DNA of 34,342 nt, from the NCBI GenBank assembly GCA_041586955.1, contig JBFGZE010000023.1, forward strand, positions 1 to 34,342, in the 5' to 3' direction. The translations under genes were made by a program, and so were the position numbers. Of the stretch, positions 288-32,747 are shown in pieces. The notes beneath the pieces are model-generated. The model was not told the DNA's origin and did no database searches. It worked only from the letters and a program-made list of their open reading frames with translations. The DNA comes from Bacteriovoracaceae bacterium (GTDB taxonomy: Bacteria; Bdellovibrionota; Bacteriovoracia; Bacteriovoracales; Bacteriovoracaceae). The stretch's first letter is position 1. The number at the start of each line of letters is the position of its first letter.

Positions 288-1337
288 ATGACATTCATAT
301 CCGATGCGATCATTGGATTGAAGATATGGGTACCTTTCATACTGACCCTTTTTGGGGGAACTCTCTATCTTTTTCTCTTTTACCAATTTATTCAATATCG
401 TGCTCGCACAAAAATTGGAAGCTCAAAAATATACTTTCAATTGGCATTATTTTTTCAGATTAATTTACTATTGCTTATTCTTATCCTTATCACACCTCTC
501 ACAGATACCCTCAAGGGGCAACTCATTGGTCTCTTAGGTATTAGTTTTACTGCGGCACTGGCGCTCTCCTCAACAACCTTTCTCGGTAATATTATGGCAG
601 GCCTAATGCTTAAAGCATTGGGTAAATACCGGCCAGGAGATTTCCTTAGTATTGAGGGCCATTTTGGAAGAGTTACGGAAATAGGTTTACTTCATACGGA
701 AATACAAACACCGGACCGAGACCTCACGACTCTGCCTAATATATATCTTGTTACAAACGCCACCAAAGTAATTCGTGCATCCGGCACTGTCATTTCAGAA
801 GATATTACTATTGGCTATGATATTCACCATCGCATCATTGAAAAATCACTGCTCAAGGCCGCCAAAGATTGTGGGCTGGAGGAGCCCTTTATGCATATCC
901 AAAAACTAGGGGATTATAGTGTCACTTATAGGATTTCCGGTTTTCTCAAGGAGATAAAAAAAATTCTTTCCACAAAAGCGAAACTGAGAGAGGAAATTCT
1001 CGACTCTCTCCATAATGAAAAAATTGAAATTATGTCTCCAGCATTTATGAATCAACGGGTGTTTTCCCCAGATAAACAATTTATTCCGCTTTACGCCAAA
1101 GATAGTCCTCAAAATATTAAGGACATGCCAGAAGATATTATTTTTGATAAGGCCGAGAAAGCGGAATCAATCGTTCACTTAAAACAAAAAATTGATGTAA
1201 GTATGGAAGAAGTCAAAAATATCGAAACGGATGAGGCCTTGACAAATGAGGTCAAAGAGAAAAAGGTGAAGTCCCTAAAACAAAAGATAGGCAAAATTAA
1301 GACTGTCATAGAAAAGAAAGAAAGCGAGGAGGAATAG
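288..1337 (+). CDS. MscS-family mechanosensitive channel with C-terminal charged coiled coil
   Basis: Three N-terminal TM segments; GNIMAGLML and PGDFLSIEGHFGRVTEIGLLHTEI..LPN match the MscS beta-domain signature; AGGAG RBS upstream; protein ends ESEEE. Confidence 0.9.
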   Translation: MTFISDAIIGLKIWVPFILTLFGGTLYLFLFYQFIQYRARTKIGSSKIYFQLALFFQINLLLLILILITPLTDTLKGQLIGLLGISFTAALALSSTTFLGNIMAGLMLKALGKYRPGDFLSIEGHFGRVTEIGLLHTEIQTPDRDLTTLPNIYLVTNATKVIRASGTVISEDITIGYDIHHRIIEKSLLKAAKDCGLEEPFMHIQKLGDYSVTYRISGFLKEIKKILSTKAKLREEILDSLHNEKIEIMSPAFMNQRVFSPDKQFIPLYAKDSPQNIKDMPEDIIFDKAEKAESIVHLKQKIDVSMEEVKNIETDEALTNEVKEKKVKSLKQKIGKIKTVIEKKESEEE

Positions 1338-1367
1338 TTTTAATTAAGCCGCCCGGAGAGGTGACCC

Positions 1368-2243
1368 TTATTCCTCATCCTGTTTTTGCTCTAGTGCCAC
1401 TTCAGGCCTTACCAGTTTATTCTCTTCACCCCAGAGAATATAGGAACGAATCAGTTGCTGTTCAATATTGCTTATCGATTCATTTTCGACAGGCATTTTG
1501 AGCATCAGGTCGACTTTATTATCCGGCCTTAAAATAACTTTGATTCGCGGCCCAAGACTCGGTGCTTTAATCCCTTCTTTGCGACATGATGCTAGTATTG
1601 AGGCCTCAGCAAGTTTTAAATAAGGGCTTGAGATCTCTGTGGCCAAGTTCAAGAGAAAGTTTTCATTTTGTTCAAGGGATACGCCTTCATAGGGTGTAAA
1701 GGTAAAGGACTTAATAGAAAAGCCATCAAAATAAGATTCATTAATAATGAGCTTACTAAGCATAATGCTATTGGGGAGGGCAACAATCCGTCCTGTTAAT
1801 TGTTGCGAGTTTCTCTCTGTTCCTAATTCTAATAAGCGTGTGACAAAGATGTTTTTATCTAACACAATCCCTCTCACTTTTTCGACATCTAAAAAGTCCC
1901 CGCGTCGATAAAGTTTATTAATTGAAATAAGGATTCCTCCCGTAATACACATGATAATTTCTTTTAAGGCAATAACGATGGCCGCAGCAACCGCCATCAT
2001 AGAGATAAGAATTCCCTGCACATGAGAGAACCATACTAATACAATCAGAAACATCGTGATGAGATTGAGGTAGGATTTAATTTTTTTTCGAGTAAAGGCC
2101 TTTTCTTCCTCGTCGAGCACAGAATTTTTTTTGAGGCCCCTCAATAAAAAAGAGCGGAGAACGAGACCCACAATGATAAAAGTTAAAGTTAAAGCGATAT
2201 TTTTATAAAAAGGGTTGTTGATAAAAATCAAATATTCTTTCAT
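1368..2243 (-). CDS. MscS-family mechanosensitive channel
   Basis: TM helices ending AAAIVIALKEIIMCITGG, then YRRGDFLDVEKVRGIVLD and TGRIVALPNS (MscS pattern); protein ends QDEE. Confidence 0.88.
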   Translation of the reverse strand: MKEYLIFINNPFYKNIALTLTFIIVGLVLRSFLLRGLKKNSVLDEEEKAFTRKKIKSYLNLITMFLIVLVWFSHVQGILISMMAVAAAIVIALKEIIMCITGGILISINKLYRRGDFLDVEKVRGIVLDKNIFVTRLLELGTERNSQQLTGRIVALPNSIMLSKLIINESYFDGFSIKSFTFTPYEGVSLEQNENFLLNLATEISSPYLKLAEASILASCRKEGIKAPSLGPRIKVILRPDNKVDLMLKMPVENESISNIEQQLIRSYILWGEENKLVRPEVALEQKQDEE

Positions 2244-2325
2244 GAGAGGGTCCTTAAATTCACGCCAAAAAGATTAAGTTCCTCAAAACTTTAAAATCTG
2301 TCAAGAATTATGGACCAGGTGGTTT

Positions 2326-3324
2326 TTATATTTCATCCCAATCAAATATTTCCTCCTCAAAAGGTTGATTCTTGCCAATATGGCCTAAATTATAAAGAGA
2401 ATCTCCGGCCATTACTAGTGCGGTGCGCCTCATCCCTAAAATTACACCATTGGCCGGGCATTCTATCTTCCTCAGCAATTCCCCTTTTATATTCCTCAAT
2501 TCTCCAATAACCTGACCCTTTTTCACGACATGGCCGAGGGTGAATTTATTAATAAGAACCCCTCCTTCGCTGGCCCTAATCCAATTTGTTTTTTTGATGA
2601 GAAGATGTTTCTGGTTTTTAGAACGGGTGCCTGGAGTAATCATTTTATAATGGCGCAAGACACTTTTGATAAAATGCATACCACTTTGGGTAACACTTTC
2701 ATCAATTCGCAACCCTTCTCCTCCTTCAAAAACTAAACATATTTTTCCCTTTTCATCAATTGCCTGTCTGAATGATCCATCTCGCAAAGAACTGTTCACA
2801 GCTAATGGGATATCAATATCATTAACTATATTTCGAACCGCCTTATTCTTTAAATCACAGCGGACTTGGGGGATATTGAGTCTTCCTGCTGGCCCGGAAT
2901 GGAGATCAATAAAGCAATCGCCCACCTCGGAAAAATTACGCATGAGAAAGTAAGCAAATCGCGTACCAAAACTGCCCACGTTTTTTCCTGGAAAAAAGCG
3001 ATTCAAATCCTTGCGGTCGGGAAGATATCTCACTTTATTCAAGAAGCCATAGATATTAACTAAGGGAACTATTATCAATGTCCCTTTCTGTAGCTTCAGC
3101 CTTGAAGTCATAAGTTTCTGAGCAATTCTCATACCACTAATTTCATCTCCATGCATACATGAAGTTACAATGATACAAGGGGAAATTTTTTGACTCGCAC
3201 GATGAACAAAAATAGGAGTCTTCACTTCCTGCATACCGTAAAAAGAAGGAAAATCAACTTCCTCGATAATTCTTTGGTTGAGTGGATATTTTTTTAAGTC
3301 TAGCGAAAAAACATTATCTTTCAT
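2326..3324 (-). CDS. Succinylglutamate desuccinylase/aspartoacylase-family (M14) metallopeptidase
   Basis: Zn and catalytic motifs HGDE, DLNRFFPG, IDLHSG and VFEGG, plus a C-terminal barrel-sandwich-like segment. Start set at ATG 3324 (MKDNV), overlapping the rimK stop by 11 nt; the ORF track start of 3393 lies well inside rimK. Confidence 0.9.
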   Translation of the reverse strand: MKDNVFSLDLKKYPLNQRIIEEVDFPSFYGMQEVKTPIFVHRASQKISPCIIVTSCMHGDEISGMRIAQKLMTSRLKLQKGTLIIVPLVNIYGFLNKVRYLPDRKDLNRFFPGKNVGSFGTRFAYFLMRNFSEVGDCFIDLHSGPAGRLNIPQVRCDLKNKAVRNIVNDIDIPLAVNSSLRDGSFRQAIDEKGKICLVFEGGEGLRIDESVTQSGMHFIKSVLRHYKMITPGTRSKNQKHLLIKKTNWIRASEGGVLINKFTLGHVVKKGQVIGELRNIKGELLRKIECPANGVILGMRRTALVMAGDSLYNLGHIGKNQPFEEEIFDWDEI

Positions 3325-4201
3325 TTTTTTGCACCCGTGTTTCGACATACTTAATAATTTCTCCTGCAACATTTTTTGCGGTGGTTCCCTCAATTCCTTC
3401 CAGGCCAGGGGATGAATTAACCTCCAAAATCTTTGGCCCAGAACTTGACCTTATAATATCCACTCCTGCCAAATTAAGCCCCATCGCCCTTGCTGCTTTG
3501 ATGGCAACTTTTCTTTCATCAGGAGTCAGTGTGACCTTTTCTCCATGCCCACCTCGGTGGATATTAGACCGAAATTCTCCTTCCTTCGCCACTCTCATCA
3601 TTGAGGCGACAACCTTTTCACCTACGACAAAACATCTTATATCTCTTCCCATGGCACCTTTAATAAATTCTTGTACCAGAAAGTTTGCCTTCAGTTCTCG
3701 AAAAGCATCAATTAAGCTTTCCGATGCCTTTTGGGTTTCACCTAAGACAACTCCACGTCCTTGAGTTCCCTCTAATAATTTAACAACAGTTGGGGCACCT
3801 CCTACAAGTTCAATGAGCTTTTTTGTCTGTTGAGTAGAGCTTGCAAAACTTGTGCGCGGTAATGGTAAGCCTTTTTTCGAAAGTAATTGCATAGACCTTA
3901 GTTTATCGCGAGATCGACCAATGGCATCGGAGGAATTTAGGCAATAAATACCCATCATTTCAAATTGGCGTACGATTGCCATACCGTAAAAGCTGATTGG
4001 GGAGCCTATTCGAGGGATGATGACATCGACTTTGGCAATCTTTCTCTGTTTATAATGGACCATGGGTGCACCTGTTGAGATATCCATAAAGCATAATAAT
4101 GGATTGAGAACTTCGATAGTATGGCCTCGGGAACGTCCTTCATCGACAATTCTTTTAGTCGAATAAATATTTTTATTTAATGAAAGGATTACTATTTTCA
4201 T
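3314..4201 (-). CDS. rimK: RimK-family alpha-L-glutamate ligase (ATP-grasp)
   Basis: DVIIPRIG, RDKLRSMQLL, EGTQGRGVVL, LVQEFI, FRSNIHRGG and LEVNSSPGLEGIE are hallmark RimK motifs; GAGG RBS upstream. Confidence 0.95.
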   Translation of the reverse strand: MKIVILSLNKNIYSTKRIVDEGRSRGHTIEVLNPLLCFMDISTGAPMVHYKQRKIAKVDVIIPRIGSPISFYGMAIVRQFEMMGIYCLNSSDAIGRSRDKLRSMQLLSKKGLPLPRTSFASSTQQTKKLIELVGGAPTVVKLLEGTQGRGVVLGETQKASESLIDAFRELKANFLVQEFIKGAMGRDIRCFVVGEKVVASMMRVAKEGEFRSNIHRGGHGEKVTLTPDERKVAIKAARAMGLNLAGVDIIRSSSGPKILEVNSSPGLEGIEGTTAKNVAGEIIKYVETRVQKNER

Positions 4202-4515
4202 TATAATTCCTCGTTGAATCTAATTTCATGATTATTTTGTAAAATTTGTATTTACCTAAGAACCGAAGAATAAAGAACATTTCGAGAAATATATAAATTG
4301 GCCATTTCATAGCAGCGTCGACTAATTGCTTAATTTTAATTGAGACCATTGTCATAATCCCAATATCATAAACTTTTTCGGTAATAAATGTGGGGGAGTT
4401 CGTTCTTGCCTTGAGAAGAATAAGGTATGGGTCACTGATCTCAATGTTAGAACTAGCTTGAACCACTTAACCCCCCATTGGCAACCTCGCTAAGCGAGAA
4501 GTTTTTTCAGGATGG

Positions 4516-4679: not shown

Positions 4680-5285
4680 CTATGTGTCGTTTTCATTTTT
4701 GTCAAAAAGCTTTTTTCTCGCTTCTTTTTCACGATAAATGATTTCAACATTAACGAGAGAGAGGTTTTCGTAAAGATTTTTTGCAGTAATTTGTGGCCAC
4801 CATTCATACAAGAAAATATTAATTGGCTTCCACATTGAGACCCATCCAATTAACAATAGCCCTTCTTTAATGAATGATTTTAATAGACTACTTTTGATAA
4901 GATCGTCTAATAATGAGGTTATGAAAATAACGAGTGATAAAAATGAGAGGCCTATTATTAAGGTTTTAAAACCAAGATAAAATGTCGTGCGAATGTTTTT
5001 TCTTTTTATATCTGCCCGATAGAAAAAATATTCACTAATGGCCTTTTGAATGGTTTTATGAACCTGATTGCTAGTGTTATCATAGGTGAAAATCTTAATT
5101 TTTCCAATGTTTTTGAGACCGATTTCACTTGCTGAAGAAATAATGTATTCGGCAGCATCATCATCTAAATCCTTTTTGCGGTAAGGATTGGGGTCTTTTT
5201 TGTCGAAAAGCTGCTCCAGATTATCAACTTTTAATTCGATAACGTACTTTCCTTCTTCAGTTGAATACCATTTTGCTGTTTTCAT
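4680..5285 (-). CDS. Conserved hypothetical membrane protein (two C-terminal TM helices)
   Basis: 201 aa ORF; EQLFDKKDPNPYRKKDLDDDAAEYI and EGLLLIGWVSMWKPINIFLYEWWP resemble a widespread uncharacterised family (from recall, not searched). Confidence 0.8.
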   Translation of the reverse strand: MKTAKWYSTEEGKYVIELKVDNLEQLFDKKDPNPYRKKDLDDDAAEYIISSASEIGLKNIGKIKIFTYDNTSNQVHKTIQKAISEYFFYRADIKRKNIRTTFYLGFKTLIIGLSFLSLVIFITSLLDDLIKSSLLKSFIKEGLLLIGWVSMWKPINIFLYEWWPQITAKNLYENLSLVNVEIIYREKEARKKLFDKNENDT

Positions 5286-5829: not shown

Positions 5830-6354
5830 CTAAGCTATTTTTGAGGATTTTATCTTTTGAGATGAATTATCCCCTTCATTTCCATCTAATAGACGACTCC
5901 AAAGGCCACCTGATCTTCGCGAAGCAATTTCAAGTCTTTTAATCTTTGGATCGCCAGTTTTTCGCATAGCGATTGTTAAAACACCATTTTCAAAAACAGC
6001 TTCGGCATCATCTGTACTTACGTTTTCTGGTAAAGAAATTGTTCTCTCGAATTTTCCATACCTTCTTTCTGTGTACTGACCTTCATGATGCTCATCTTTT
6101 CGCTCACCATAGATGCGTAGTTTCCCTTCACTGAGATCAATTTTAATCTCATCTTTTGGAATTCCAGGAAGATCAAAGCTCATCATGTAATGGCCTTTTT
6201 TTTCATTGATCTCACAAGATGGAAGAAGATTGTTTTCTAACCTGACGCCAGGAGACCGCCAAAGGTTATCCATAAATCGCTCCATTTCTCGCTCCATTTC
6301 ATTAATCATTTTAAACGGTGAAAAATCACTTTTTCTTGTCAATTCATTTCTCAT
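5830..6354 (-). CDS. Hsp20/alpha-crystallin small heat shock protein
   Basis: FDLPGIPKDEIKI, ERRYGKFERTISLP, AVFENGVLTI and a C-terminal LEI (IXI-like) motif; AAGGAG RBS. Confidence 0.95.
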   Translation of the reverse strand: MRNELTRKSDFSPFKMINEMEREMERFMDNLWRSPGVRLENNLLPSCEINEKKGHYMMSFDLPGIPKDEIKIDLSEGKLRIYGERKDEHHEGQYTERRYGKFERTISLPENVSTDDAEAVFENGVLTIAMRKTGDPKIKRLEIASRRSGGLWSRLLDGNEGDNSSQKIKSSKIA

Positions 6355-6397
6355 TTCAAAACTCCTTCTTTGTTTAAAAATTATCTATTTTTATTCA

Positions 6398-6757
6398 TTA
6401 CTTTTTTGTGTCTTGCTCAGGTGTCGCGCTACTTTTTGCTCCACTTCTTTTCCAAAATTGCCACCACTTCTTCTTTTCAGCATCTGGCGCGTGGGCCATT
6501 ATGACATCCTGTTTTTTGGCATCGAGCTCGACGACCTCGTCATTTTTTTTTTCATCATCATAAGTGGATTCACTCACTTCAGTTTCATCGTCTTCCATTA
6601 TTAATTCACTATCTGTAGATTTTTCTTCTACGCAATTATCACCGATACATCTTTCAACAGAAGTATTGTCGTCGTATTGGTCCTCATCTTCAGCATGGAT
6701 TTGAGGAATATTTAGTAGCAGCGCAATGGTTATGACCCCTAATAATTTCTTTTTCAT
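6398..6757 (-). CDS. Small secreted acidic protein with KKWWQFWK motif
   Basis: Start at ATG 6757, 7 nt after AAGGAG. Signal peptide MKKKLLGVITIALLLNIPQIHA, an Asp/Glu-rich body, one Cys pair (CIGDNC) and a basic/aromatic C-terminal motif. Confidence 0.75.
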   Translation of the reverse strand: MKKKLLGVITIALLLNIPQIHAEDEDQYDDNTSVERCIGDNCVEEKSTDSELIMEDDETEVSESTYDDEKKNDEVVELDAKKQDVIMAHAPDAEKKKWWQFWKRSGAKSSATPEQDTKK

Positions 6758-6819
6758 CCCATTTCTCCTTTTAGACATTGATCAATTTTGTTTTACAATA
6801 AGTTTTCGATGGGTTTAGC

Positions 6820-6836
6820 AGCAATGCTTGTGCCAA
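6820..6836 (-). promoter_or_regulatory. Sigma-54 -24/-12 promoter for the secreted protein-hsp20 unit
   Basis: Minus strand reads TTGGCACAAGCATTGCT, exact GG-N10-GC matching TGGCAC-N5-TTGC. Confidence 0.85.
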
Positions 6837-6900
6837 AATCTCTAAGTAATACAAGTGTCTAATTTTTAAAGTTTTTTAATTTGAAGGAATCAGAATTGTA

Positions 6901-6913
6901 GAACAAATTGTTC
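6901..6913. promoter_or_regulatory. Palindromic candidate enhancer (UAS), GAAC-N5-GTTC
   Basis: GAACAA-A-TTGTTC palindrome about 67-79 bp upstream of the -24 GG; similar sites occur at 8660-8672 and 12084-12096. Confidence 0.5.
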
Positions 6914-7156
6914 CATAAATGCGGTATTTGTTATTCCTCTGCGACCCAAAAATTCTATAATGCTAAAGCAATTGGCCAATTATTAACGATCCCTTTTTTG
7001 GCGTATTTTTGTTTTAGATAAATGGCCATTGCAGGAGAGAGGTTAGGTCTATTTATTCAGGAAGTTGTTAGGGTCATCCTTCTAATGATTTCTGGATGGA
7101 TAGAGCTTTGGCGATGAGGTGATCAATGGTTAAATGAGTCATTGGCAGGGAATAGA

Positions 7157-7184
7157 TTGACTTTTTAGTAAAAGTCTTCATTAT
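7157..7184 (+). promoter_or_regulatory. Candidate sigma-70 promoter of the activator gene with an overlapping palindrome
   Basis: TTGACT-16 nt-CATTAT; the inverted repeat GACTTTT-TAGT-AAAAGTC (7159-7176) overlaps the -35 and spacer. Confidence 0.4.
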
Positions 7185-7225
7185 TAATATTACTTTTATT
7201 GCATGCTGCATTATAAGGTGACTTT

Positions 7226-8692
7226 ATGAGTAATTTAAAGAAGATATTAGTCATTACTGATTCAGATAGAGTGATCTCCGCTCTTAAAGATTTCCTTGTC
7301 GATAAGTTTCAAATAGTTTCAAGTACAAGCTTGAACCTCGAGTGTTTTGTCGAAAACCAGACTTTGTTTGAATTTATATTTGTTGATTATATTTTACTCA
7401 ATAATTTTAAAACACAAAAACAAGATGATGATTATTATAAAGAGAAGCTTTCTTTTATAAAAAACTCTTTTCCCGAGATCAGGGTTTTTATTTTAGCAGA
7501 TGCCAGAAAGCAAGATGATGCAGGATCACTATTAAAACTTGGGTTTAATAATATTTTACAAATTCCATTCACAAAAGAAGTTTTAGAGCATCGGTTACTT
7601 GTCGAAGAAGAAAGAGTTCAGCTTAAAGAGGTCTCTAAAGCGATTGTAAATGACTTCTTACCGTCGAAGAGCTTTTTTCACACTGAAAATAGTGATTTTT
7701 CACATGACCTTGAAAATTTAGTGCAAATTGCAAAAAGTAGGACAACTATTCTCATTACGGGTGAATCTGGTACAGGAAAAAGTTTGCTTGCGAAATACAT
7801 TCACCAATTAAGTGAAAGAAGTGAACGGCACTTTGTAGAAGTCCATTGCGGGGCCATACCTGAAACACTTGTTGAAAGTGAACTTTTTGGACATGAGAAA
7901 GGATCTTTTACAGGGGCCATCAAAAGAAAAATTGGAAAGTTTGAACTTGCTAACAAGAGTACGATTTTTTTGGATGAAGTGGGAACAATTACCAGGCCTG
8001 TCCAAGTTAGGCTTTTACAAGTTTTACAAGAAAGATTTATTCAAAGGGTAGGAGGAGAAGCGGATATACCACTTGATATAAGAATTATCGCTGCAACCAA
8101 TAATGATTTAAAGTCTATGGTAAAAGAGGGCGACTTTAGGGAAGACCTCTACTTTAGGTTAAATGTTTTTCAAATTGAGATTCCTGCCCTAAGAAATAGG
8201 AAGGAAGATATTCCATTTTTATGCCAAAAGATTTTAGAAAAGCTAAACGCCCTTTATGAAAAAGAGATAAAAGCGGTTTCGCATGAGGCCTTAAGTATTT
8301 TTCATAATTACAATTGGCCTGGAAATGTAAGAGAGTTGGAAAATATTCTTGAGAGGGCCTATGTTTTAGAACGCGGGAAAGAAATATCCGCTATTAATAT
8401 TCCAAGGGAAATGATTCCAGCAAGTAGGGATGTTTTATCAATTTCTCCTCTCGACAGGAGGAGTATTGGCCTCGTGGAAGCGCGAAGAGAGGCAACTGCC
8501 TCCTTTGAAAAAAAGTACCTGACAGAGTTACTTATTGCCCATAGGGGAAAAGTCTCAATCATGGCCAAAGAGGCCCAAGTCTCTGTACGGCAACTACATA
8601 AGTTAATGGCCAAGCATGCAATAAAGTCTACAGATTTTTCAATTAAATTGGATCAGGAAGAACAGGAAGTTCATCTTGACGCCTTGCCTTAG
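7226..8692 (+). CDS. Sigma-54-dependent transcriptional activator (NtrC-type bEBP: degenerate receiver, AAA+, Fis HTH)
   Basis: Walker A GESGTGKS, ESELFGHEKGSFTGA (GAFTGA-loop variant), Walker B IFLDEV, AATN, FREDLYFRLNV, WPGNVRELEN and a C-terminal HTH. Confidence 0.95.
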   Translation: MSNLKKILVITDSDRVISALKDFLVDKFQIVSSTSLNLECFVENQTLFEFIFVDYILLNNFKTQKQDDDYYKEKLSFIKNSFPEIRVFILADARKQDDAGSLLKLGFNNILQIPFTKEVLEHRLLVEEERVQLKEVSKAIVNDFLPSKSFFHTENSDFSHDLENLVQIAKSRTTILITGESGTGKSLLAKYIHQLSERSERHFVEVHCGAIPETLVESELFGHEKGSFTGAIKRKIGKFELANKSTIFLDEVGTITRPVQVRLLQVLQERFIQRVGGEADIPLDIRIIAATNNDLKSMVKEGDFREDLYFRLNVFQIEIPALRNRKEDIPFLCQKILEKLNALYEKEIKAVSHEALSIFHNYNWPGNVRELENILERAYVLERGKEISAINIPREMIPASRDVLSISPLDRRSIGLVEARREATASFEKKYLTELLIAHRGKVSIMAKEAQVSVRQLHKLMAKHAIKSTDFSIKLDQEEQEVHLDALP

Positions 8693-8756
8693 AATCAAAT
8701 ATTCCTTAAAAATCTAACTTAAATACCTAACATGCTGAAAAAACTTATCTAAGTAC

Positions 8757-8773
8757 TTGGCACTTAATTTGCT
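8757..8773 (+). promoter_or_regulatory. Sigma-54 -24/-12 promoter for the dksA-like gene
   Basis: TTGGCACTTAATTTGCT, exact GG-N10-GC. Confidence 0.85.
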
Positions 8774-8818
8774 TATAGTAAATGGAATTATCAAATGGGA
8801 AATTGTAAGGAGTTCTCA

Positions 8819-9349
8819 ATGGGTCAGCGTCGTGTCAAATTAAGACAATATGATTTTCAACTATATAATCAGCTCGTAGACAGCTTTGCCGAAAGCAGCG
8901 ATGAATTATTATTTTTATCTCCTACAGAAGAGGTCATGGCGGGCCCCTGGATAAACGTTTCCCCAAAAAAAAGAAACATAAAAAGCGCAGTCGGTAAAAC
9001 GGATGTTGTGAATATAGACCAGTACGAGAATTTTATTATTCAAAAAAAGGTGAAGTTACTAGCTGATAAATCCAATTATCTGAATCAATTAAAGGCCAAT
9101 GAATCTCATCCTGATATCGCCGATGAAGGGTCTGATCGAGAAATGGAATATAAGCTTGAGGCGATCATTGAAAGTATAGATATTCGAATCTATCAACTAG
9201 AGAAGGCACTCGGAAGACTTAAAAATGGCACTTATGGTTTGTGCGAGGAATGTCGAGAGGAAATTTCTAGCAAAAGATTGAATGCGATTCCAGAGGCCTT
9301 TCTTTGCGTCAGCTGTGCTGATATTAGTTATGAACCCGAATGCCACTAG
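8819..9349 (+). CDS. DksA/TraR-family C4 zinc-finger protein
   Basis: Coiled-coil tip HPDIADEGSD and the zinc finger YGLCEECREEISSKRLNAIPEAFLCVSCA. Start set at ATG 8819 after TAAGGAG (ORF track start 8795). Confidence 0.88.
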   Translation: MGQRRVKLRQYDFQLYNQLVDSFAESSDELLFLSPTEEVMAGPWINVSPKKRNIKSAVGKTDVVNIDQYENFIIQKKVKLLADKSNYLNQLKANESHPDIADEGSDREMEYKLEAIIESIDIRIYQLEKALGRLKNGTYGLCEECREEISSKRLNAIPEAFLCVSCADISYEPECH

Positions 9350-9589
9350 AACAGTGGCACTTCTCGCTATCAGTTAAGGGCCTTGATTAAAGGTGAGGTT
9401 GTCTTCTCTATTCAGTCCTTCCACATCACTCTTTATTATTGTTATAGAATTAATAGTACCAATATCTTCAACATTGGGTTGAAGATAAAAAATGATTGCT
9501 GAAACTACCATAGTCTTTTTTGTTCTCTCATTTCCGTAAATTAAATAGAAAAATAATTTAACTAATTGAAATTAAAAGAAGCCTTTGAG

Positions 9590-9606
9590 TTGGCATCTTA
9601 CTTGCT
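9590..9606 (+). promoter_or_regulatory. Sigma-54 -24/-12 promoter for the orphan-usp unit
   Basis: TTGGCATCTTACTTGCT, exact GG-N10-GC. Confidence 0.8.
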
Positions 9607-9738
9607 CAATGAAAGATGAAAAAGCGGCTTTGGCCAACCAGAAAAACCTGGGAGGGAGGATTTAAGGTCGCTGTCGTTGATTGTAAAAAAGCAGTGAAGG
9701 GAAGAGTAAGACCTTCCCATATTTCTAAGGAGAAAGGA

Positions 9739-10023
9739 ATGAATGTTTTAACTAGACTTTGCTTTTGGAAAAAGGATGGAAAGAAAAGAGACGGTGAGAT
9801 TAGTAGTTCTTCATTTGTCATTGAAGATGATATTTTGTATTGTCCCCTGGATAAAGATTTAGACCTTGATATGGAAGCGAACCGTCCCTATTATAATTAT
9901 CGTAATTTTTCGCCTCATCAAGAGTATATCAATGAAGTAGGTAAAACAAACACCAGTTTGCACCCGAACAACTTTGTTCAAAAAGAAGAGCGTAGAGATT
10001 ATGAAAATTATGGCGGAGAATAG
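9739..10023 (+). CDS. Small hypothetical protein, probably co-transcribed with usp
   Basis: AAGGAGAAAGGA RBS before ATG 9739 (MNVLTRLCFWKK...); stop lies 2 nt before the usp start. The ORF track start of 9616 falls at the predicted transcription start and has no RBS. Confidence 0.6.
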   Translation: MNVLTRLCFWKKDGKKRDGEISSSSFVIEDDILYCPLDKDLDLDMEANRPYYNYRNFSPHQEYINEVGKTNTSLHPNNFVQKEERRDYENYGGE

Positions 10024-10025
10024 TA

Positions 10026-10925
10026 ATGGCACAAACTGAAATAATTATTGGAACAGACTTGTCTGATAATTCAAATCTCGCAATTGAGACAGGTATGCTT
10101 TGGGCGAATATGCTTAAGTGTCACCCGGTCGTCATGCATGTTCATATTTCAAGTGTGAATTCGAATACCAGGCATCTGTTTAATCCTGACCTTGAATCCA
10201 AATTTGATGAATTGGCCAATATGGTGAAAGAAGAATTACTCAAGAAACTAAAAGGACAAGTTCGACCTTGGATCAAAATGCAAAATGATATTGAACCAAT
10301 ACTTGCTTTTGGAGATCGAGCGAAAAAATTTGTCGAAAGAGCTAATGAAAAGAATTCCAAACTGATTATTCTTGGTTGGAATAAAGATTTGAGCGAGGAG
10401 ACATTATGGCTTGCCTCGACCATAGATAGGGTTTTAAGAATTTCTAAAGTACCGGTATTAATTGTTAAAGATAATAAGGCCATGAATCCCAAAAGGATAG
10501 TTGTTCCCTTTGTATTAAATAATGAATTCGTTGATTTATTAGAATGGGCCAGAGTTTTACTGAATACCTTTAGCTCAAAATTTGAATTTATACATGTTTT
10601 AAAAGACAAGGAAATTGTAAGCTCGAAAAGTGATATAGGTGTCCTCAAAGAATTTTATCCTGAGAATGAATATGCCATAGAAAAACTAGAAGAGTTTATA
10701 AAATTTGCATCAAAGAGTAATGGCAGCGCAAGTGTCGAAATTATCCCTGGAGTCAAGTCTATTCAAAAAGAGCTTGAGAATAAAATCAATGGTTCTGCAC
10801 CGGATCTTATATTGATGTCAACGCATGGCCTAAGCGGTATCGAAAAACTATATATGAGTAGTATTACCGAATGGATTTCTAAGGCCTCAAAGTGCTCAGT
10901 GCTTGTCACAAAAGAATTTTCATGA
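10026..10925 (+). CDS. Tandem-domain universal stress protein
   Basis: IIIGTDLSDNS, LIILG...RVLRISKVPVLIVK, and a second domain with DLILMSTHGLSGIEKLYMSSITE..CSVLV. Confidence 0.9.
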   Translation: MAQTEIIIGTDLSDNSNLAIETGMLWANMLKCHPVVMHVHISSVNSNTRHLFNPDLESKFDELANMVKEELLKKLKGQVRPWIKMQNDIEPILAFGDRAKKFVERANEKNSKLIILGWNKDLSEETLWLASTIDRVLRISKVPVLIVKDNKAMNPKRIVVPFVLNNEFVDLLEWARVLLNTFSSKFEFIHVLKDKEIVSSKSDIGVLKEFYPENEYAIEKLEEFIKFASKSNGSASVEIIPGVKSIQKELENKINGSAPDLILMSTHGLSGIEKLYMSSITEWISKASKCSVLVTKEFS

Positions 10926-11065
10926 AAAACCTAATGGCCTTATTCTTCAAATGAAAATCAAGTTTTTGGGGACGGTGGAATTCTCAAATTTCTTAAGACA
11001 TGACTTTATCATGAAAAAATCACTAAGAAATTATAGATGAGTCTAATATCATAATTTTCCACTTC

Positions 11066-11092
11066 TATAAGGGGTATTATTAACCCCTTATA
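11066..11092. terminator. Hairpin between the convergent usp and crp/fnr genes
   Basis: TATAAGGGGT-ATTATTA-ACCCCTTATA, a 10-bp stem 11 nt beyond the crp/fnr stop; U-tract is weak. Confidence 0.55.
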
Positions 11093-11103
11093 AATGATAT
11101 CAA

Positions 11104-11853
11104 TTAGCTGGCAAATCGTAGTAGTTTGGGCATATCTTTAATATATAGAACTTTTCCTTTTTGTATTATAATTTCCTCACTTTTCAATTCACTTAAAAAG
11201 CGACTTAACGTTTCCGTTGCTGTTCCAATTATTGAGGCCATATTCTCTCTACTTAAAAATACATTAAATTTAAAATTGCCATTTTCGTCTACACCACCAT
11301 CTTTTTCCGCCAAGTCTATTAAAAGGTGGGCAAGTCTTTCGCGTACGTTTTTCTGGCATTTTTCTACAAACTTTATTTCTATTTCCCTATATTCCTCTAA
11401 TAAATGACGATAAAAATGAGTCGTGAGTTGTGGGAATCTATCGATTAAGTAAGCGATAGACTTTTTATCTAGAAAATAAATAAGGGAGTCTTCAATTGCT
11501 GTTGCGGTTGAATTGTGTGATTCGTGTTTGAAGATATGATGATGAGCAAGAAATTCATTAGGCCGTGCAATTCGAATAATAGTTTCCTTCCCATCTGCAG
11601 ATGTTTGTGAAATTTTTATTTTTCCCGATAAGATTAAAAAAATTCCGTAGAAGGGGTTTCCTTGAACAAAGAGGGTCTGATTTTTTTTATATCGATTTTT
11701 AATAGCAAATCTATTAATTCCATCTATTAATTCTGGGCCATTCAATTGTGGAATAATAAAGTGAGCACCTTTGAGTTGTTGATCTCTATGATTAACAACA
11801 TTAAAATGATTGTTTTCTGGCAATAGTTCACTTCTTAAGGTCTGGGCATACAT
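11104..11853 (-). CDS. Crp/Fnr-family transcriptional regulator
   Basis: cNMP-like domain (LFVQG, ILSGKIKI, DGKETII, TATAIEDS), VRERLA, and HTH SRENMASIIGTATETLSRFLSEL. There is no N-terminal Cys cluster, so it is not a true Fe-S FNR. Confidence 0.93.
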   Translation of the reverse strand: MYAQTLRSELLPENNHFNVVNHRDQQLKGAHFIIPQLNGPELIDGINRFAIKNRYKKNQTLFVQGNPFYGIFLILSGKIKISQTSADGKETIIRIARPNEFLAHHHIFKHESHNSTATAIEDSLIYFLDKKSIAYLIDRFPQLTTHFYRHLLEEYREIEIKFVEKCQKNVRERLAHLLIDLAEKDGGVDENGNFKFNVFLSRENMASIIGTATETLSRFLSELKSEEIIIQKGKVLYIKDMPKLLRFAS

Positions 11854-28839: not shown

Positions 28840-28924
28840 CTTTTTTCTAAAACCTAGTATTTTTCTCTTCCATTAAGTTTTGGAATGTGTATTATTGGGC
28901 ACGTTGAAAAAAAGGGGTGCACCG

Positions 28925-31900
28925 ATGAAAGTTGTCTTCGTTCTTTTTTCAGTTAGTCTATTTTTTTGCGGCCCCTCCCTCTTTGCTTTAGAAAAGCTTG
29001 ATAAGCGCCATATTCAAACTAAGCAGAGATTTATTCAAAAAAATTTCCAACGTGATAACCAATACGCCGCTGATAAATTGTATGCTTTTGTTGCTCACCT
29101 TGAAAAAGAGAAAATTTCTCTTAAAGAAGACCTTTATGAAACCCGACTCATCCGCGAGTTAGAACAAGATATTTCTGGTCTCAAGGAAGCGAAACGCGAT
29201 GCGCTCAAAGCGATTAAAGAAAAGAAAAATAGATTCCTTCTTGCCTATAATGAATTTATGATTCCGCGGGTTAAACAGGCCGCTGTTCTGGCCGAAGAGG
29301 GATATGGTCCCGAGACGATCCAACCATTGATTGATGAATTCCTTGAGGTTTATGCGGGTTTTTATCTCCCCAATGCTCCCCGTCGGGTCTGGGATTTGGA
29401 CCAAAGTCCGGTTGCCCTTTTTAAATCTTTTTGGGGTTATCATTATCGGCGTGATGATCGAAATGCGGTTGAGGCCTCCAATTTAACTGTTGGAGACCAT
29501 GTCTCTGCGGTTTCGGATTGCCTGGGACAATCTTTTAGTAAAAATGACTTTTTATCTCAGAAAGAGATTAAAGAGCTTAAGCGTTGTCATTTTGACATCT
29601 CGCTTTTATCTCCTCCAAAAAATCCTTTGATGGGTCTAGAGCGGGATGAATTTTTAGCTGAGGCCCGTAATCGCCATATGGATAGGTTTCCCTCCAAAGA
29701 GGATAAGATTACCTTTCGGAAGATCAAACATTCAGGTTCCGGCTCAGCTAAATTAATCGCGACCTATAAGCGTGATGGTAAGAAGGTTAGAATAAAGATT
29801 AAATTTGGGCGCGAAGTACATAGCGAGATTGCCGTGAGCATCCTTGGAAAATTAATCGGCCTGCATCAGGATAATCAAATCCATCGCCATGATATTAAAA
29901 TGTATTTGGGAAAATATGATTTTGACGGATTCGTTCAGCAGTGGCGTCGGAAATATGAAGGCCTTAACGAAGAAGTGGAAACTTTCTTGAAAGACCGTGG
30001 GAAAGATGATGGAGGAGAATATGTTATTTTTAAAAATGGCTCCATCGAAATTAATGACCAAGATGATTTACGTTTAGAGGGGTATAACCCCGCAGGCTGG
30101 GATCTCGAGAATAAGCGAGAACATCGGGCACAGGTGCTCTGGTATTCTTTGGTGAATATGCTCGATACAAAAACGGGGAATCATCGCATCATTCTTAAAA
30201 AGACCAAAAAGGGTTTACAGGCCGCTTATTCTCTCCAGGATGTGGGTATTTCTTTGATTGCCTCACCTAATTTGCGTTACCCCTTGAAAACAATTAAGGG
30301 ATCTCTTGGCTATTCAGTTAATTGGTTTTCAAAAAGTTCAATTGATTGGAATGACCGTCGGATTCATATTTGGTGGAGTGAAGTCTTAATGGACAAGGAG
30401 CGTTTCCGTACCACGACCTACGCCGATCTCAAGTGGATGGCACGGCGAATTGCTGCTATTGATTATGATGATATCGTTTTTGCTTTTAAAGAATCGGGAT
30501 ACCCTGAACCTGTCGCGGACCTCTATGTGCATAAGATCGTTCATCGTCGCAATGATCTGGTCAAGGCCTTTCGCCTAGAAAAAGAATTTGACCTTTACTA
30601 CGTCCCCAATTTTAAAACCTATTCGCCGAATAAACATATTAAAAATGGTAAATTGGTGACGAAATCGTTTAAGGGGTTTTCACAATATCATGGGACTCAA
30701 TTATCCTTCGCGCCGGCGATTATCGATACTTTCACTCGCCTAATTCCCATTCAGTGGATTAGAGAAAATTTTCAATTAAAAGTGAAAAGTAGCATCGATT
30801 TGCATAGTCGTGAGAATATTGTGCTATGGGATGGCCATCGTGGAAAAAATATCATATTTCGTCGTTTGAATGGAGGAGTTGCTCTTGATATTAAACGACG
30901 GGTGGAGCGCAATAATGCTTTTCACGTGCGAGACGATGGTAAAACGGATGCTTTTATTGTACGTGATATTTTGACGATTCAATTTAGTCTCCATTCTGGT
31001 CTCATTACGACGATAGGGGATCATTTACCCCTTCACGTCGGCGCTCATTTGCGGGCCTATCGAAAAGAAATTGAATTTACGCATTTTGCCAGCTCGTGGA
31101 TGGGTGGCTATCTCAAACCATTACAATTAAATAAGATTTTGCGGGCGTTCCGCAAAGACGTTCTCTTTTCCCTGGGGCCTGGGGAGGTCATGCGCCTGCA
31201 AGATTATTATGGCATGAGTCTTAGTTCGCGCTTGTCCTTCCCCCAGGTTTCAGAGCCTTTACGTGTCACCGCCGGTGTTTCATGGCAGCGCTCGAAGCCC
31301 GTTTTTTTTGGCCGCGATTATATGGATGGGGTTTTTATTTATAGAGAAAAAAATGATAATTATCGTTTTTCTTTTGGTCTGGAGTTTGGTCTGGTTGATC
31401 TCTATTTAATCGATTTTCCCATCATTGGGCTTCATTACAAAGTGGTTCAATATAAATATGAAAGCTCTCTTTATCGTTTTCATTTGCGTCGCCAGCATGA
31501 ATTTGAAACCGTGCCTGAACAGGTGAGGCGAAAGAGTGAAGACCAGGTATTGGGGCGTTTTCTCGCGGGAGATGACGAATCTCCTTCTATATTGGGGCGA
31601 CGACAATTCGCCGTCGATGGCCAGGCGCGAGTCCATCATAAGAGATTATCTCTGCTGAACTTTCTGCGTAAGGAAAAGAAAATTGGTCACGCCTCTTTTA
31701 AGATTATCGACAAGAATGGCAAGGTCGATCATTTTTATCGTTCCTGGTATTTTAAAGGCAAACTTTTTGGTGATGATGATGATTTTGTTTATCTCAATTC
31801 TCCTTTGGCAGTGGTCGCTGAGGATCAGACCACCTATTCGGTAGAACTAAAAAATGAAGATTATAAAAAGTCCTTGATTGTGGTGAGACGGGGGATTTTT

Positions 31901-32584
31901 AAAAGGAAAATGAAAAAGAAAAAGCTGCAAAAGCATATTGGGAAAATGAACGAGCTTTATTCACAGGGACGTCATAAGAAATTTTTTAGAAATTATATAC
32001 TTCCTTCATCGAGCGATGTTCCCTTTTATCGCAAAGTTTATACGGATATCCGAATATTTATCGATCCCAATAAAGTGCTTGAAGGCCTGGCCAAGGCCAA
32101 ACGGAAAGGTGAGGATTACTATAAAAAGGTGGTTAAGGATGTCTTCCGTGGCAAGCGGCGCGATAACTACGTGACAATACCTTTAATCGGTTTAAGGCCA
32201 GTAAAAAAACGACTCACTCGATTATTGACTGAAGATTTAGGTCCGAAGAAATATACAGAAACATGGATTAAGGTCTTGCGAAAAATGAAGTGGGATAGAA
32301 ATACTCTGCGCTATATGAAGAGGTATTTTGGCGAGGATAGTTTCTTTATCTATGGGGAGATCCATGGGATTTATCCTAGTTTTACTCCTTTGCAACAAGA
32401 TGATGCGACGACAGCTCGCCGTTTTACGGGGAAGAGTTGGGGGGAATTGGATCATTCTCCACCTTTTTGGAAATTTCTTAAGGCCCATCATCTAGCACCT
32501 CTGCGCGTTTTCGTCACTAACTCCGCTTTTGTTCATTCAATGCTCGGAGATCTTCCTGCTGCTGCGGGGATTGATTATTATTAG
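28925..32584 (+). CDS. Large secreted hypothetical protein with a putative atypical kinase-like domain
   Basis: Likely start ATG 28925 giving signal peptide MKVVFVLFSVSLFFCGPSLFA. Ordered motifs SGSGSAK, KIKFG..E, LDTKTGN and LQDVG; the C-terminal half is beta-rich. Confidence 0.75.
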   Translation: MKVVFVLFSVSLFFCGPSLFALEKLDKRHIQTKQRFIQKNFQRDNQYAADKLYAFVAHLEKEKISLKEDLYETRLIRELEQDISGLKEAKRDALKAIKEKKNRFLLAYNEFMIPRVKQAAVLAEEGYGPETIQPLIDEFLEVYAGFYLPNAPRRVWDLDQSPVALFKSFWGYHYRRDDRNAVEASNLTVGDHVSAVSDCLGQSFSKNDFLSQKEIKELKRCHFDISLLSPPKNPLMGLERDEFLAEARNRHMDRFPSKEDKITFRKIKHSGSGSAKLIATYKRDGKKVRIKIKFGREVHSEIAVSILGKLIGLHQDNQIHRHDIKMYLGKYDFDGFVQQWRRKYEGLNEEVETFLKDRGKDDGGEYVIFKNGSIEINDQDDLRLEGYNPAGWDLENKREHRAQVLWYSLVNMLDTKTGNHRIILKKTKKGLQAAYSLQDVGISLIASPNLRYPLKTIKGSLGYSVNWFSKSSIDWNDRRIHIWWSEVLMDKERFRTTTYADLKWMARRIAAIDYDDIVFAFKESGYPEPVADLYVHKIVHRRNDLVKAFRLEKEFDLYYVPNFKTYSPNKHIKNGKLVTKSFKGFSQYHGTQLSFAPAIIDTFTRLIPIQWIRENFQLKVKSSIDLHSRENIVLWDGHRGKNIIFRRLNGGVALDIKRRVERNNAFHVRDDGKTDAFIVRDILTIQFSLHSGLITTIGDHLPLHVGAHLRAYRKEIEFTHFASSWMGGYLKPLQLNKILRAFRKDVLFSLGPGEVMRLQDYYGMSLSSRLSFPQVSEPLRVTAGVSWQRSKPVFFGRDYMDGVFIYREKNDNYRFSFGLEFGLVDLYLIDFPIIGLHYKVVQYKYESSLYRFHLRRQHEFETVPEQVRRKSEDQVLGRFLAGDDESPSILGRRQFAVDGQARVHHKRLSLLNFLRKEKKIGHASFKIIDKNGKVDHFYRSWYFKGKLFGDDDDFVYLNSPLAVVAEDQTTYSVELKNEDYKKSLIVVRRGIFKRKMKKKKLQKHIGKMNELYSQGRHKKFFRNYILPSSSDVPFYRKVYTDIRIFIDPNKVLEGLAKAKRKGEDYYKKVVKDVFRGKRRDNYVTIPLIGLRPVKKRLTRLLTEDLGPKKYTETWIKVLRKMKWDRNTLRYMKRYFGEDSFFIYGEIHGIYPSFTPLQQDDATTARRFTGKSWGELDHSPPFWKFLKAHHLAPLRVFVTNSAFVHSMLGDLPAAAGIDYY

Positions 32585-32747
32585 AACTGTCATTATTTGG
32601 TCCACCTTTGAGTTTGGCAGGTGGGTAGACGGGCAAATTAGGAATAGTTAAGTTTGAGGGTGAAAAATTGACCCGGATTGCGCGTCGTGCCTGGTCGGTA
32701 GTAGAGGGATCAGATAGCGTTGGGGCAAATTTTTTGGAGTGTTAATT

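Follow-up and report, generated by a model that had tools for sequence, protein, structure and literature searches.

The enzyme RimK is known for its glutamylation of ribosomal protein S6 (RpsF), and its wider role is debated. The contexts given for its gene are with rimB, with rimA and rimB, or solitary, as stated in the extracts available from one account (PMC10092738). The present work concerns a rimK gene on contig JBFGZE010000023.1 of a Bacteriovoracaceae bacterium, which is the first gene of an operon with a gene for an AstE/AspA-type zinc amidohydrolase and lies near two genes that encode MscS-family channels. The window, by which is meant the whole stretch of DNA that was analysed, is 34,342 nucleotides (nt) long and its first letter is at a contig end. 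Comparison of this locus with others adds the following to what is known: the most constant partner of RimK in many bacteria is an uncharacterised zinc hydrolase of the AstE/AspA type, the module formed by the two is found repeatedly among genes for mechanosensitive and Mg2+ channels, and a whole bacterial family keeps RimK though its S6 has no free C-terminus. The question is thus moved from a modifier of the ribosome towards the homeostasis of glutamate and cations, and both the enzyme pair and its genetic contexts lend themselves to tests. The reading that we favour, while holding its chances to be evenly balanced, is that the pair builds and hydrolyses alpha-glutamyl chains, buffers the pool of glutamate and cations, and works with ion channels in the homeostasis of glutamate, K+, Mg2+ and turgor.

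RimB, the best described partner of RimK, is a retropepsin-like endopeptidase; it strips poly-Glu from RpsF and also stimulates RimK. Together, the two enzymes yield free poly-alpha-glutamate of up to 28 residues, and such synthesis would, in the view of the authors, deplete the glutamate pool and shift osmolality (PMC11957791). The RimB-like RloA proteases cut Glu runs of at least eight residues and are needed for hypo-osmotic tolerance; here, RpsF and the Legionella protein SdeA are named as the sole bacterial proteins for which polyglutamylation is known (PMC12239564). In addition, poly-E tails are removed by a mechanism that is independent of RimB (PMC7343187). All of these statements are those of the extracts available from each paper. 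In the passages of the RimK literature that were searched, no description was found of a pairing with an AstE-type hydrolase or of linkage to MscS, CorA or MgtE. Among the listed papers that bring RimK together with any of these channels, those that name RimK are surveys of genomes or metagenomes. Among the matches listed for RimK together with aspartoacylase, again as accessible extracts, the subject was animal or human metabolism or horizontal gene transfer, and none described a bacterial RimK-AstE pairing.

All four genes of the locus were found where the preliminary description of this DNA had placed them. The rimK gene lies at 3314..4201 on the minus strand and encodes an ATP-grasp alpha-L-glutamate ligase of 295 amino acids (aa). 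It is followed by the gene for the hydrolase (2326..3321, minus strand, 331 aa), which is an AstE/AspA-type zinc amidohydrolase with an M14-like fold and belongs to a RimK-linked subfamily. The rimK stop codon (TAA, 3316-3314) and the hydrolase start codon (ATG, 3321-3319) lie within an overlap of 8 nt (3314..3321, minus strand), which suggests translational coupling. The longest open reading frame (ORF) of the hydrolase is 2326-3393, with a TTG at 3393; the ATG at 3321 (MKDNVF..) matches the N-termini of orthologues better, and these (MKESLF.. and MKEDGF..) align with it. A spacer of 82 nt (2244..2325, minus strand), with a weak promoter-like site and no terminator-like site, then leads to mscS2 (1368..2243, minus strand, 291 aa), whose product is an MscS-family channel that ends in ..KQDEE. 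Promoter and terminator scans of the locus gave no more sites than were present in shuffled sequence. The remaining channel gene, mscS1 (288..1337, plus strand, 349 aa), encodes an MscS-family protein with a Lys/Glu-rich C-terminal extension ending in ..KESEEE. This gene is on the opposite strand, convergent to mscS2 and 30 nt from its stop codon, and is therefore outside the operon; MscS1 is probably an incidental neighbour of the RimK cluster. The earlier observation that rimK overlaps a peptidase-like gene which is followed by MscS genes, and that both channels end in Glu-Glu (EE), is borne out by the coordinates, the overlap and the tails. As to the gene order, only MscS2 follows the hydrolase on the same strand.

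Judged by its profile matches, the RimK of the locus is a bona fide ATP-grasp alpha-L-glutamate ligase. It has the architecture of a pre-ATP-grasp domain joined to an ATP-grasp domain, with Pfam matches to Rimk_N (residues 1-94, 128.5 bits) and to the RimK domain (residues 98-286, 217.5 bits). It scores 406.5 bits against NCBIfam NF007764, the equivalog profile for S6--L-glutamate ligase, where the cut-off is 331. Solved RimK structures are matched over the full length, these being the Pseudomonas protein 7qyr (375.6 bits, residues 1-288) and the E. coli proteins 5zct/4iwx (361 bits), and the aligned part is approximately 60% identical to the S6-modifying enzyme of Pseudomonas. The profiles of the small-molecule ligases MptN and CofF are both missed (179.9 vs a cut-off of 350 and 79.3 vs 300, respectively). 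The usual companions of RimK were also sought. The ORFs upstream of rimK, at 4173-4466 and 4680-5285, gave no Pfam match to RimB (PF05618), and no EAL-domain match, as expected for the RimA phosphodiesterase, was found among the 29 window ORFs scanned. In this genome, a PF05618 gene occurs only in a paralogous cluster on contig C61.

The partner of RimK had been called an M14 metallopeptidase. Here, the fold part of that assignment stands and the family part does not. The protein matches PF24827, the AstE/AspA family, with 94.4 bits (cut-off 25), and this is the sole Pfam family listed for it at E<=0.01; the Peptidase_M14 profile, which we take to be PF00246, is not among the families listed at that threshold. 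An AlphaFold model (predicted local distance difference test score 85.7, predicted template modelling (TM) score 0.88) was matched in order by DoeB (6twm, TM 0.79), two structural-genomics proteins of the AstE/AspA family, CphZ (8ein), AstE, aminoacylase 3 and aspartoacylase. The TM score is 0.81 with 3cdx, 0.72 with CphZ (E 5e-17) and 0.52-0.56 with human ASPA. An M14 enzyme, carboxypeptidase D (1qmu), appears as a remote match at rank 48 (TM 0.46). As the Peptidase_M14 profile is not matched and carboxypeptidase D is remote in fold, "M14-like" is a fair term. By sequence profile, the nearest characterised relative is DoeB (105 bits), and CphZ is found at 31.7 bits. The hydrolase is not an orthologue of DoeB, AstE or AspA, since the NCBIfam cut-offs for all three are missed (TIGR02994 for DoeB, 78 vs 402.7; aspartoacylase, 20.3 vs 180; AstE, 16-19.6 vs 170-306).

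The active-site residues of the hydrolase are intact. Residues H57, D59, E60, H141 and E199, together with seven arginines, are invariant in 80/80 hydrolases from RimK-adjacent loci, and the D-L-N-R motif (D105-L106-N107-R108) is invariant or nearly so in the same 80 proteins. By homology, H57, E60 and H141 are presumably the zinc ligands (H-x-x-E ... H), E199 the catalytic Glu and D-L-N-R the carboxylate-binding motif. Four of the conserved residues, D59, R103, R205 and R249, differ in the three unlinked paralogues of the hydrolase in this genome, and the extra invariant arginines R103, R205 and R249 suggest a more polyanionic substrate. To our knowledge, all characterised members of the AstE/AspA family cut the amide bond of an acyl-amino acid and free an amino acid that bears a free alpha-carboxylate. 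By analogy, the action of the RimK-linked enzyme on X-Glu would be the reverse of the ligation that RimK carries out.

A further feature was seen at the C-terminus of the hydrolases. Those from the group of clusters with a short RimK and no RimB, which includes the window (2326-2360) and loci L040, L041, L042, L043 and L105, have an acidic-aromatic tail, such as ..EEEIFDWDEI, ..EELFDFFDFEM or ..GVFDWDEY. These tails are absent from hydrolases in RimB-containing clusters, and they may be a docking motif.

The genomic neighbourhood of the pair gives strong support for a functional tie to MscS channels. In the relatives of the family (Bdellovibrionota, Bacteriovoracia), RimK and the hydrolase are encoded side by side in 15/15 loci. 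A survey was then made of 80 loci found by hydrolase profile, with one genome per species, from Gammaproteobacteria, Desulfobacterota, Alphaproteobacteria, Bdellovibrionota, a Chloroflexota metagenome-assembled genome, a spirochaete and a Methanolobus. RimK lies within 300 nt of the hydrolase in 66 of these loci, and a gene for the RimB-like PF05618 protease is present in 52. MscS genes, 32 in number, occur within about 8 kb in 27 of the 80 loci, and in 15 loci a MscS gene is no more than 300 nt from a core gene. By chance, approximately 2.7 would be expected at the MscS density of this genome (Poisson 2e-23), or approximately 1.9 at the density of five surveyed genomes, which hold 36 MscS in 21.9 Mb. 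All 32 proteins match PF00924, one of them at 19.8 bits, which is just under the cut-off, and that one also matches MS_channel_1st_1.

At least four MscS subfamilies are represented among the linked channels. On a hydrolase tree built with FastTree (77 tips, with L108, L140 and L171 left out for their odd length), the character "MscS nearby" needs 21 changes and shuffled labels need 21.7 +/- 1.7. As the linkage is scattered on the tree in the way that shuffled labels are, it is not one inherited block. When 877 other neighbour ORFs were clustered, CorA was found in 13 of the 80 loci, LysR-type regulators in 13 and MgtE in 8. One or more of MscS, CorA and MgtE is present in 34/80 loci, and several loci hold two or three of them. 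In L132 and L176, for example, the order is MgtE, CorA, MscS, MscS, RimK, hydrolase, RimB.

Within the family, MscS2 is the type of channel that stays linked to RimK. Of its six closest orthologues, five (G004, G016, G009, G021 and L105) are between 13 nt and 3.8 kb from a gene of the RimK cluster, either RimK or RimB-like, with G001 as the exception. Homologues of the MscS2 type are present in 11/17 RimK-positive relatives and in 0/7 of those where no RimK was found (Fisher 0.006, a value that ignores kinship). The nearest syntenic locus, L105, has a MscS gene, the MscS2 orthologue (46% identity), RimK and the hydrolase, all on one strand. The orthologues of MscS1, in G023 (58% identity) and G010 (45%), are on contigs other than that of the RimK cluster and end in ..NKSNS and ..KEKVD. 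The tie of the pair to the channels that was proposed in the preliminary description is therefore upheld as a recurrent linkage, and the part of the proposal in which the channels are substrates is not, since the EE tails are not conserved, as explained below.

Other features of these neighbourhoods were observed. CorA and MgtE are recurrent immediate neighbours of the module of RimK, hydrolase and RimB, in many cases with MscS as well; examples are L121:5457-6533, L116:9040-10020, L109:9428-10774 and L165:10364-11719. Mini MscS proteins of 165-208 aa, comprising the transmembrane part and beta-domain only, are encoded in L115, L159, L163, L113, L117 and L123. Those of 165-175 aa (L115:8966-9463, L159:8966-9493 and L163:8963-9487) directly follow the hydrolase gene; a RimB-like gene comes after them in L115 and L159, and none was found in L163. 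Those of 203-208 aa (L113, L117 and L123) adjoin the cluster in marine Gammaproteobacteria. The second RimK cluster of this genome, on contig C61 (L048:5545-8262, 10790-11497), consists, in this order, of the RimB-like PF05618 gene, a gene for RimK joined to a TrkA_C (RCK_C) domain and one for a hydrolase paralogue of 37% identity. The fused RimK is 405 aa in length, and such fusions are present in this genome, in relatives and in two other unrelated lineages. Near this cluster are a YfdX-family gene and a MscS gene broken by an in-frame stop, 2.5 kb from the RimB-like gene. In relatives, RimK clusters are also accompanied by CorA, a Na+/H+ exchanger and ThrE. Finally, proteins of about 1000 aa adjoin the RimK cluster in several loci (L048:2181-5201, L049:2776-5877, L052:4052-7096 and L105:1236-4271). 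The one in L049 has AAA_22 and NB-ARC-like domains, that of L048 has no Pfam match and that of L105 has only a sub-threshold coiled coil.

In the mechanism that we favour, RimK would ligate Glu into alpha-linked glutamyl chains, its synthesis being translationally coupled to that of the hydrolase. The hydrolase, as a RimK-specific subfamily of AstE/AspA, would release the C-terminal amino acid and so reverse the ligation. Oligo- or poly-alpha-glutamate in free form would result, perhaps together with chains attached to an acceptor other than S6. In this way, glutamate could be shifted between a monomer pool that is osmotically active and a cation-binding polyanion. The module would act alongside channels, which are MscS here and CorA and MgtE elsewhere, and these channels would be functional partners and not substrates. 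The preliminary description offered a second possibility, turnover by the pair of a glutamyl osmolyte that the channels release, and this is close to the reading given here. A broader version is advanced tentatively, as something that we think possible and would sooner doubt than believe. In it, a "polyglutamate capacitor" coupled to channels would be made up of RimK, the AstE-like hydrolase and, in clusters that have it, RimB, as a system widespread in bacteria and present in one surveyed Methanolobus. This would interconvert free glutamate and poly-alpha-glutamate, set turgor and buffer K+ and Mg2+, and it may couple physically to channels in some lineages. The modification of S6 would then be one specialised use and not the core.

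Several points weigh against the mechanism. None of the three channel types is within 8 kb in 46/80 loci, and no MscS is within about 7 kb of the four closest orthologous loci (L040-L043, 52-57% identity), which were searched with MscS1 and MscS2 queries only. The chance expectation given above is a density estimate and not a matched control, and related marine taxa account for a large share of the survey. Gene linkage cannot separate joint physiology from co-regulation within a stress island, and stress-type genes do lie upstream of the cluster (window 5830-11853): Hsp20 (5830-6354), a sigma-54 activator (7226-8692), a DksA/TraR zinc-finger protein (8795-9349), a tandem Usp protein (10026-10925) and a Crp-like regulator (11104-11853). 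The substrate of the hydrolase is one that we infer from the chemistry of its family alone. Lastly, the mechanism does not account for the EE ends that this genome shows on three of its seven MscS paralogues, on a Na+/H+ exchanger and on a MotA/ExbB protein.

The classical acceptor of RimK is the C-terminus of S6, and the preliminary description had called for a check of whether RpsF ends in EE here. It does not. The sole S6 match in the genome is a 207-aa fusion of S6 to S18 (contig C58, L001:1153-1776, minus strand), with Ribosomal_S6 at residues 3-92 and Ribosomal_S18 at residues 147-197, which ends in ..NRVTE. As a full-length single ORF, the fusion is present in 21/24 relatives from the family and in one further genome from the same order. 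S6 and S18 are split in two relatives (G002 and G018), and one relative that is 66% complete gave no match. RimK was found in 17/24 of the family relatives, and the enzyme is thus retained in a family where the fusion leaves S6 with no acceptor end of the classical kind. S6 was therefore rejected as an acceptor in this genome. The S18 end of the fusion is also an unlikely acceptor, as 0/23 fused proteins end in EE and 5/23 in a single E.

A substitute ribosomal acceptor is conceivable, and here ribosomal protein S2 was considered (contig C36:25991-26773, L193). S2 has a conserved acidic tail that ends in ..LLGEEE and is one of the 20 EE-tailed proteins of the genome. On this account, RimK modifies S2, the hydrolase trims the tail and the channels are neighbours through shared stress regulation; we consider this unlikely. 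The EE end of S2 in this genome and the close likeness of RimK to the S6-modifying enzyme of Pseudomonas are both consistent with it, and among the family genomes with S2 data, S2 ends in EE in 10/16 that are RimK-positive vs 1/7 where RimK was not found (Fisher 0.069). When single and double E are counted together, the numbers are 12/16 vs 1/7 (Fisher 0.019), and in the genomes where RimK was not found the Glu run of S2 is capped by A, V, L, K or N (..EEEEEA, ..EEEEV, ..EEKK, ..VEEL). However, this correlation is small, post hoc and ignores kinship. Further, five RimK-positive Bdellovibrionota from outside the family (G033, G034, G038, G039 and G040) have an S2 without a terminal E, and an S6 with one (..NFEEGE) is present in G039 only. 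From these tails, it follows that RimK is kept where there is no obvious E-tailed ribosomal acceptor. Nor does modification of S2 explain the linkage to MscS, CorA and MgtE.

A defined small glutamyl compound is a further alternative, one that we regard as improbable. Here, RimK would join Glu to a small acid and the hydrolase would cleave the product, which would serve as a compatible solute that the channels release on down-shock. The mammalian enzymes RIMKLA/B make N-acetyl-aspartyl-glutamate and beta-citrylglutamate, and ASPA and DoeB cleave N-acyl amino acids. Co-occurrence of RimK-like enzymes with aspartoacylase in mammals, as given in accessible extracts, fits this scheme, as do the linkage to channels, the marine origin of most survey taxa and the fact that the nearest characterised relative of the hydrolase is DoeB, an N-acetyl-diaminobutyrate deacetylase. 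In contrast, RimK passes the cut-off for S6--L-glutamate ligases and is far from MptN and CofF, and arginines 103, 205 and 249 of the linked hydrolases suggest a polyanionic substrate. The frequent third partner of the module is also RimB-like, a protease type that needs runs of Glu according to the extracts available of its description, which points to chains and not to a dipeptide (PMC12239564).

It could also be held that there is no functional tie, RimK and the hydrolase being an ordinary conserved pair that has channels beside it in this genome by chance. The absence of a nearby MscS from the four closest orthologous loci, and a gene order that varies between loci, would agree with this. 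Against it are the 32 MscS genes where two or three are expected, the 15 loci where no more than 300 nt separate a channel gene from a core gene, the involvement of several MscS subfamilies together with CorA and MgtE, and the scatter of the linkage over the hydrolase tree, so that chance neighbourhood is very unlikely.

The EE tails of the channels were the starting point of the preliminary description, in which the channels were held to be substrates of reversible C-terminal glutamylation. Both proteins pass PF00924, the MscS beta-domain (cut-off 20.2 bits), with 47.1 bits for MscS1 and 29.5 for MscS2. PF21082, the C-terminal alpha/beta domain of MscS, is approached by MscS1 (18.7 vs 21) and not matched by MscS2. 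The best scores against the E. coli-type MscS equivalog are 57.2 and 29.4, with a cut-off of 400, and both are thus divergent members of the family. The C-termini of MscS channels are cytoplasmic, S6 is unavailable as an acceptor, and in this genome both adjacent channels and a third paralogue are EE-ended, all of which would suit the proposal. The third is an 808-aa MscK-like protein on contig C20 (..KKEEE), so that EE is found in 3/7 intact MscS paralogues, compared with 20/2555 ORFs of at least 150 aa (0.78%) in the genome, which is 3.46 Mb and 88% complete. From their own tail composition, the probability of EE is about 0.028 for MscS1, about 0.028 for MscS2 and 0.010 for the third paralogue. 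The coincidence in the two channels is thus nominally unlikely in this genome, but it was noticed post hoc and is not conserved. Nor is there an excess of EE tails over the whole genome, since 19.5 are expected from local tail composition and 20 were observed.

Conservation of the tails was followed at several levels. The comparison of rimK-linked with unlinked MscS tails, which had been put forward as the check on this idea, was run and no enrichment was found, one of the outcomes named there as refuting the idea: EE ends 1/39 of the linked MscS outside the window and 1/19 of those not linked, the latter being on another contig or having no RimK in the 1.5-kb flanks seen. As the relatives were scanned by phmmer with MscS1 and MscS2 queries only, the number of linked MscS is to be taken as a minimum; in L045, the MscK-like gene came to light through Pfam only. 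Among homologues in relatives, EE is present in 0/15 of the MscS2 type and 0/3 of the MscS1 type, or 0/18 in all. Seven more MscS genes near the RimK clusters of relatives (one each in L045, L050 and L060, two each in L049 and L052) gave 0/7. In the survey of 80 loci, 1/32 MscS ends in EE (L183, ..KREE) and 5/32 end in E. The two channels of L105 have the non-acidic ends ..QQNLN and ..FKNNK, and the last 18 or so residues of MscS2 are an extension that has no counterpart in its orthologues. In metagenome contigs, 308 pattern matches for closer MscS2 relatives yielded 0 that were confirmed. The other linked channels behave alike, as 1/14 CorA proteins ends in a single E and none in EE, and no MgtE ends in E.

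A role of the MscS tails as primers for RimK, from which the hydrolase removes Glu so that gating is tuned, perhaps as a lineage-specific innovation, is for these reasons, and in view of the convergent orientation of mscS1 and its unlinked orthologues, the least probable of the explanations, and an attractive but unsupported idea, the post-translational glutamylation of MscS tails, is removed.

Some further EE-tailed proteins of the genome were seen. On contig C20 (243-1484 and 1690-4116; L190, L188), a Na+/H+ exchanger that ends in ..QQRGEE is the divergent neighbour of the MscK-like channel. A MotA/ExbB protein on contig C58 ends in ..GGGGEEE. Altogether, 5/20 EE-tailed proteins of the genome conduct ions. 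At the far end of the window, and separate from the RimK cluster, is an ORF of 1234 aa with no Pfam match (28880-32584). It is followed by a protein of 392 aa (32739-33917) that carries a thrombospondin type 1 repeat (PF00090, 37.6 bits), an uncommon feature among bacteria.

When set beside known systems, the locus is closest in its ligase to the RimK-RimB(-RimA) system of Pseudomonas and to RimK of E. coli. The likeness lies in an orthologous RimK and in a glutamate ligase that is encoded together with a Glu-removing enzyme. Unlike RimABK of Pseudomonas, this locus has neither RimB nor RimA, its partner is a zinc amidohydrolase of the AstE/AspA family, and there is no free S6 C-terminus. The RloABC system of Pseudomonas aeruginosa consists, in the extracts available of its description, of secreted RimB-like retropepsins, a membrane pseudo-transglutaminase and a RimK-like ATP-grasp protein. 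Like the module, it brings together a ligase of the RimK kind, a protease that cleaves poly-Glu and a membrane protein, and the hypo-osmotic stress phenotype is that of RloABC (PMC12239564). In the present case, however, the ligase is RimK proper, ion channels are the partners in the membrane, and the hydrolase is of another family with no sign of secretion.

The likeness to DoeB/EutE, the N-acetyl-L-2,4-diaminobutyrate deacetylase of ectoine catabolism, is one of zinc-site architecture and of a place in osmolyte metabolism. In contrast to DoeB, the RimK-linked hydrolases have D59, R103, R205 and R249 as invariant residues of their own, and no ectoine genes were seen nearby. In the glutamylation of tubulin, TTLL ligases write and the CCP M14 deglutamylases erase. 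This parallel is that of a writer and an eraser, with an ATP-grasp-type Glu ligase and a zinc enzyme of carboxypeptidase fold; here, however, the hydrolase is of the AstE/AspA type and not an M14D CCP, and a protein substrate is without support.

Cyanophycin metabolism offers the parallel in working logic. There, an ATP-grasp polymerase (CphA) is combined with an endo-acting peptidase (cyanophycinase) and with a terminal hydrolase of the AstE/AspA family (CphZ). According to the accessible extracts, CphZ is the terminal hydrolase of cyanophycin, a polymer that is itself made by an ATP-grasp enzyme (PMC9974463). In the module described here, the polymer would be alpha-poly-Glu and not Asp-Arg, and the hydrolase has 14% identity to CphZ, so the resemblance is to be read as one of working logic and not of family membership.

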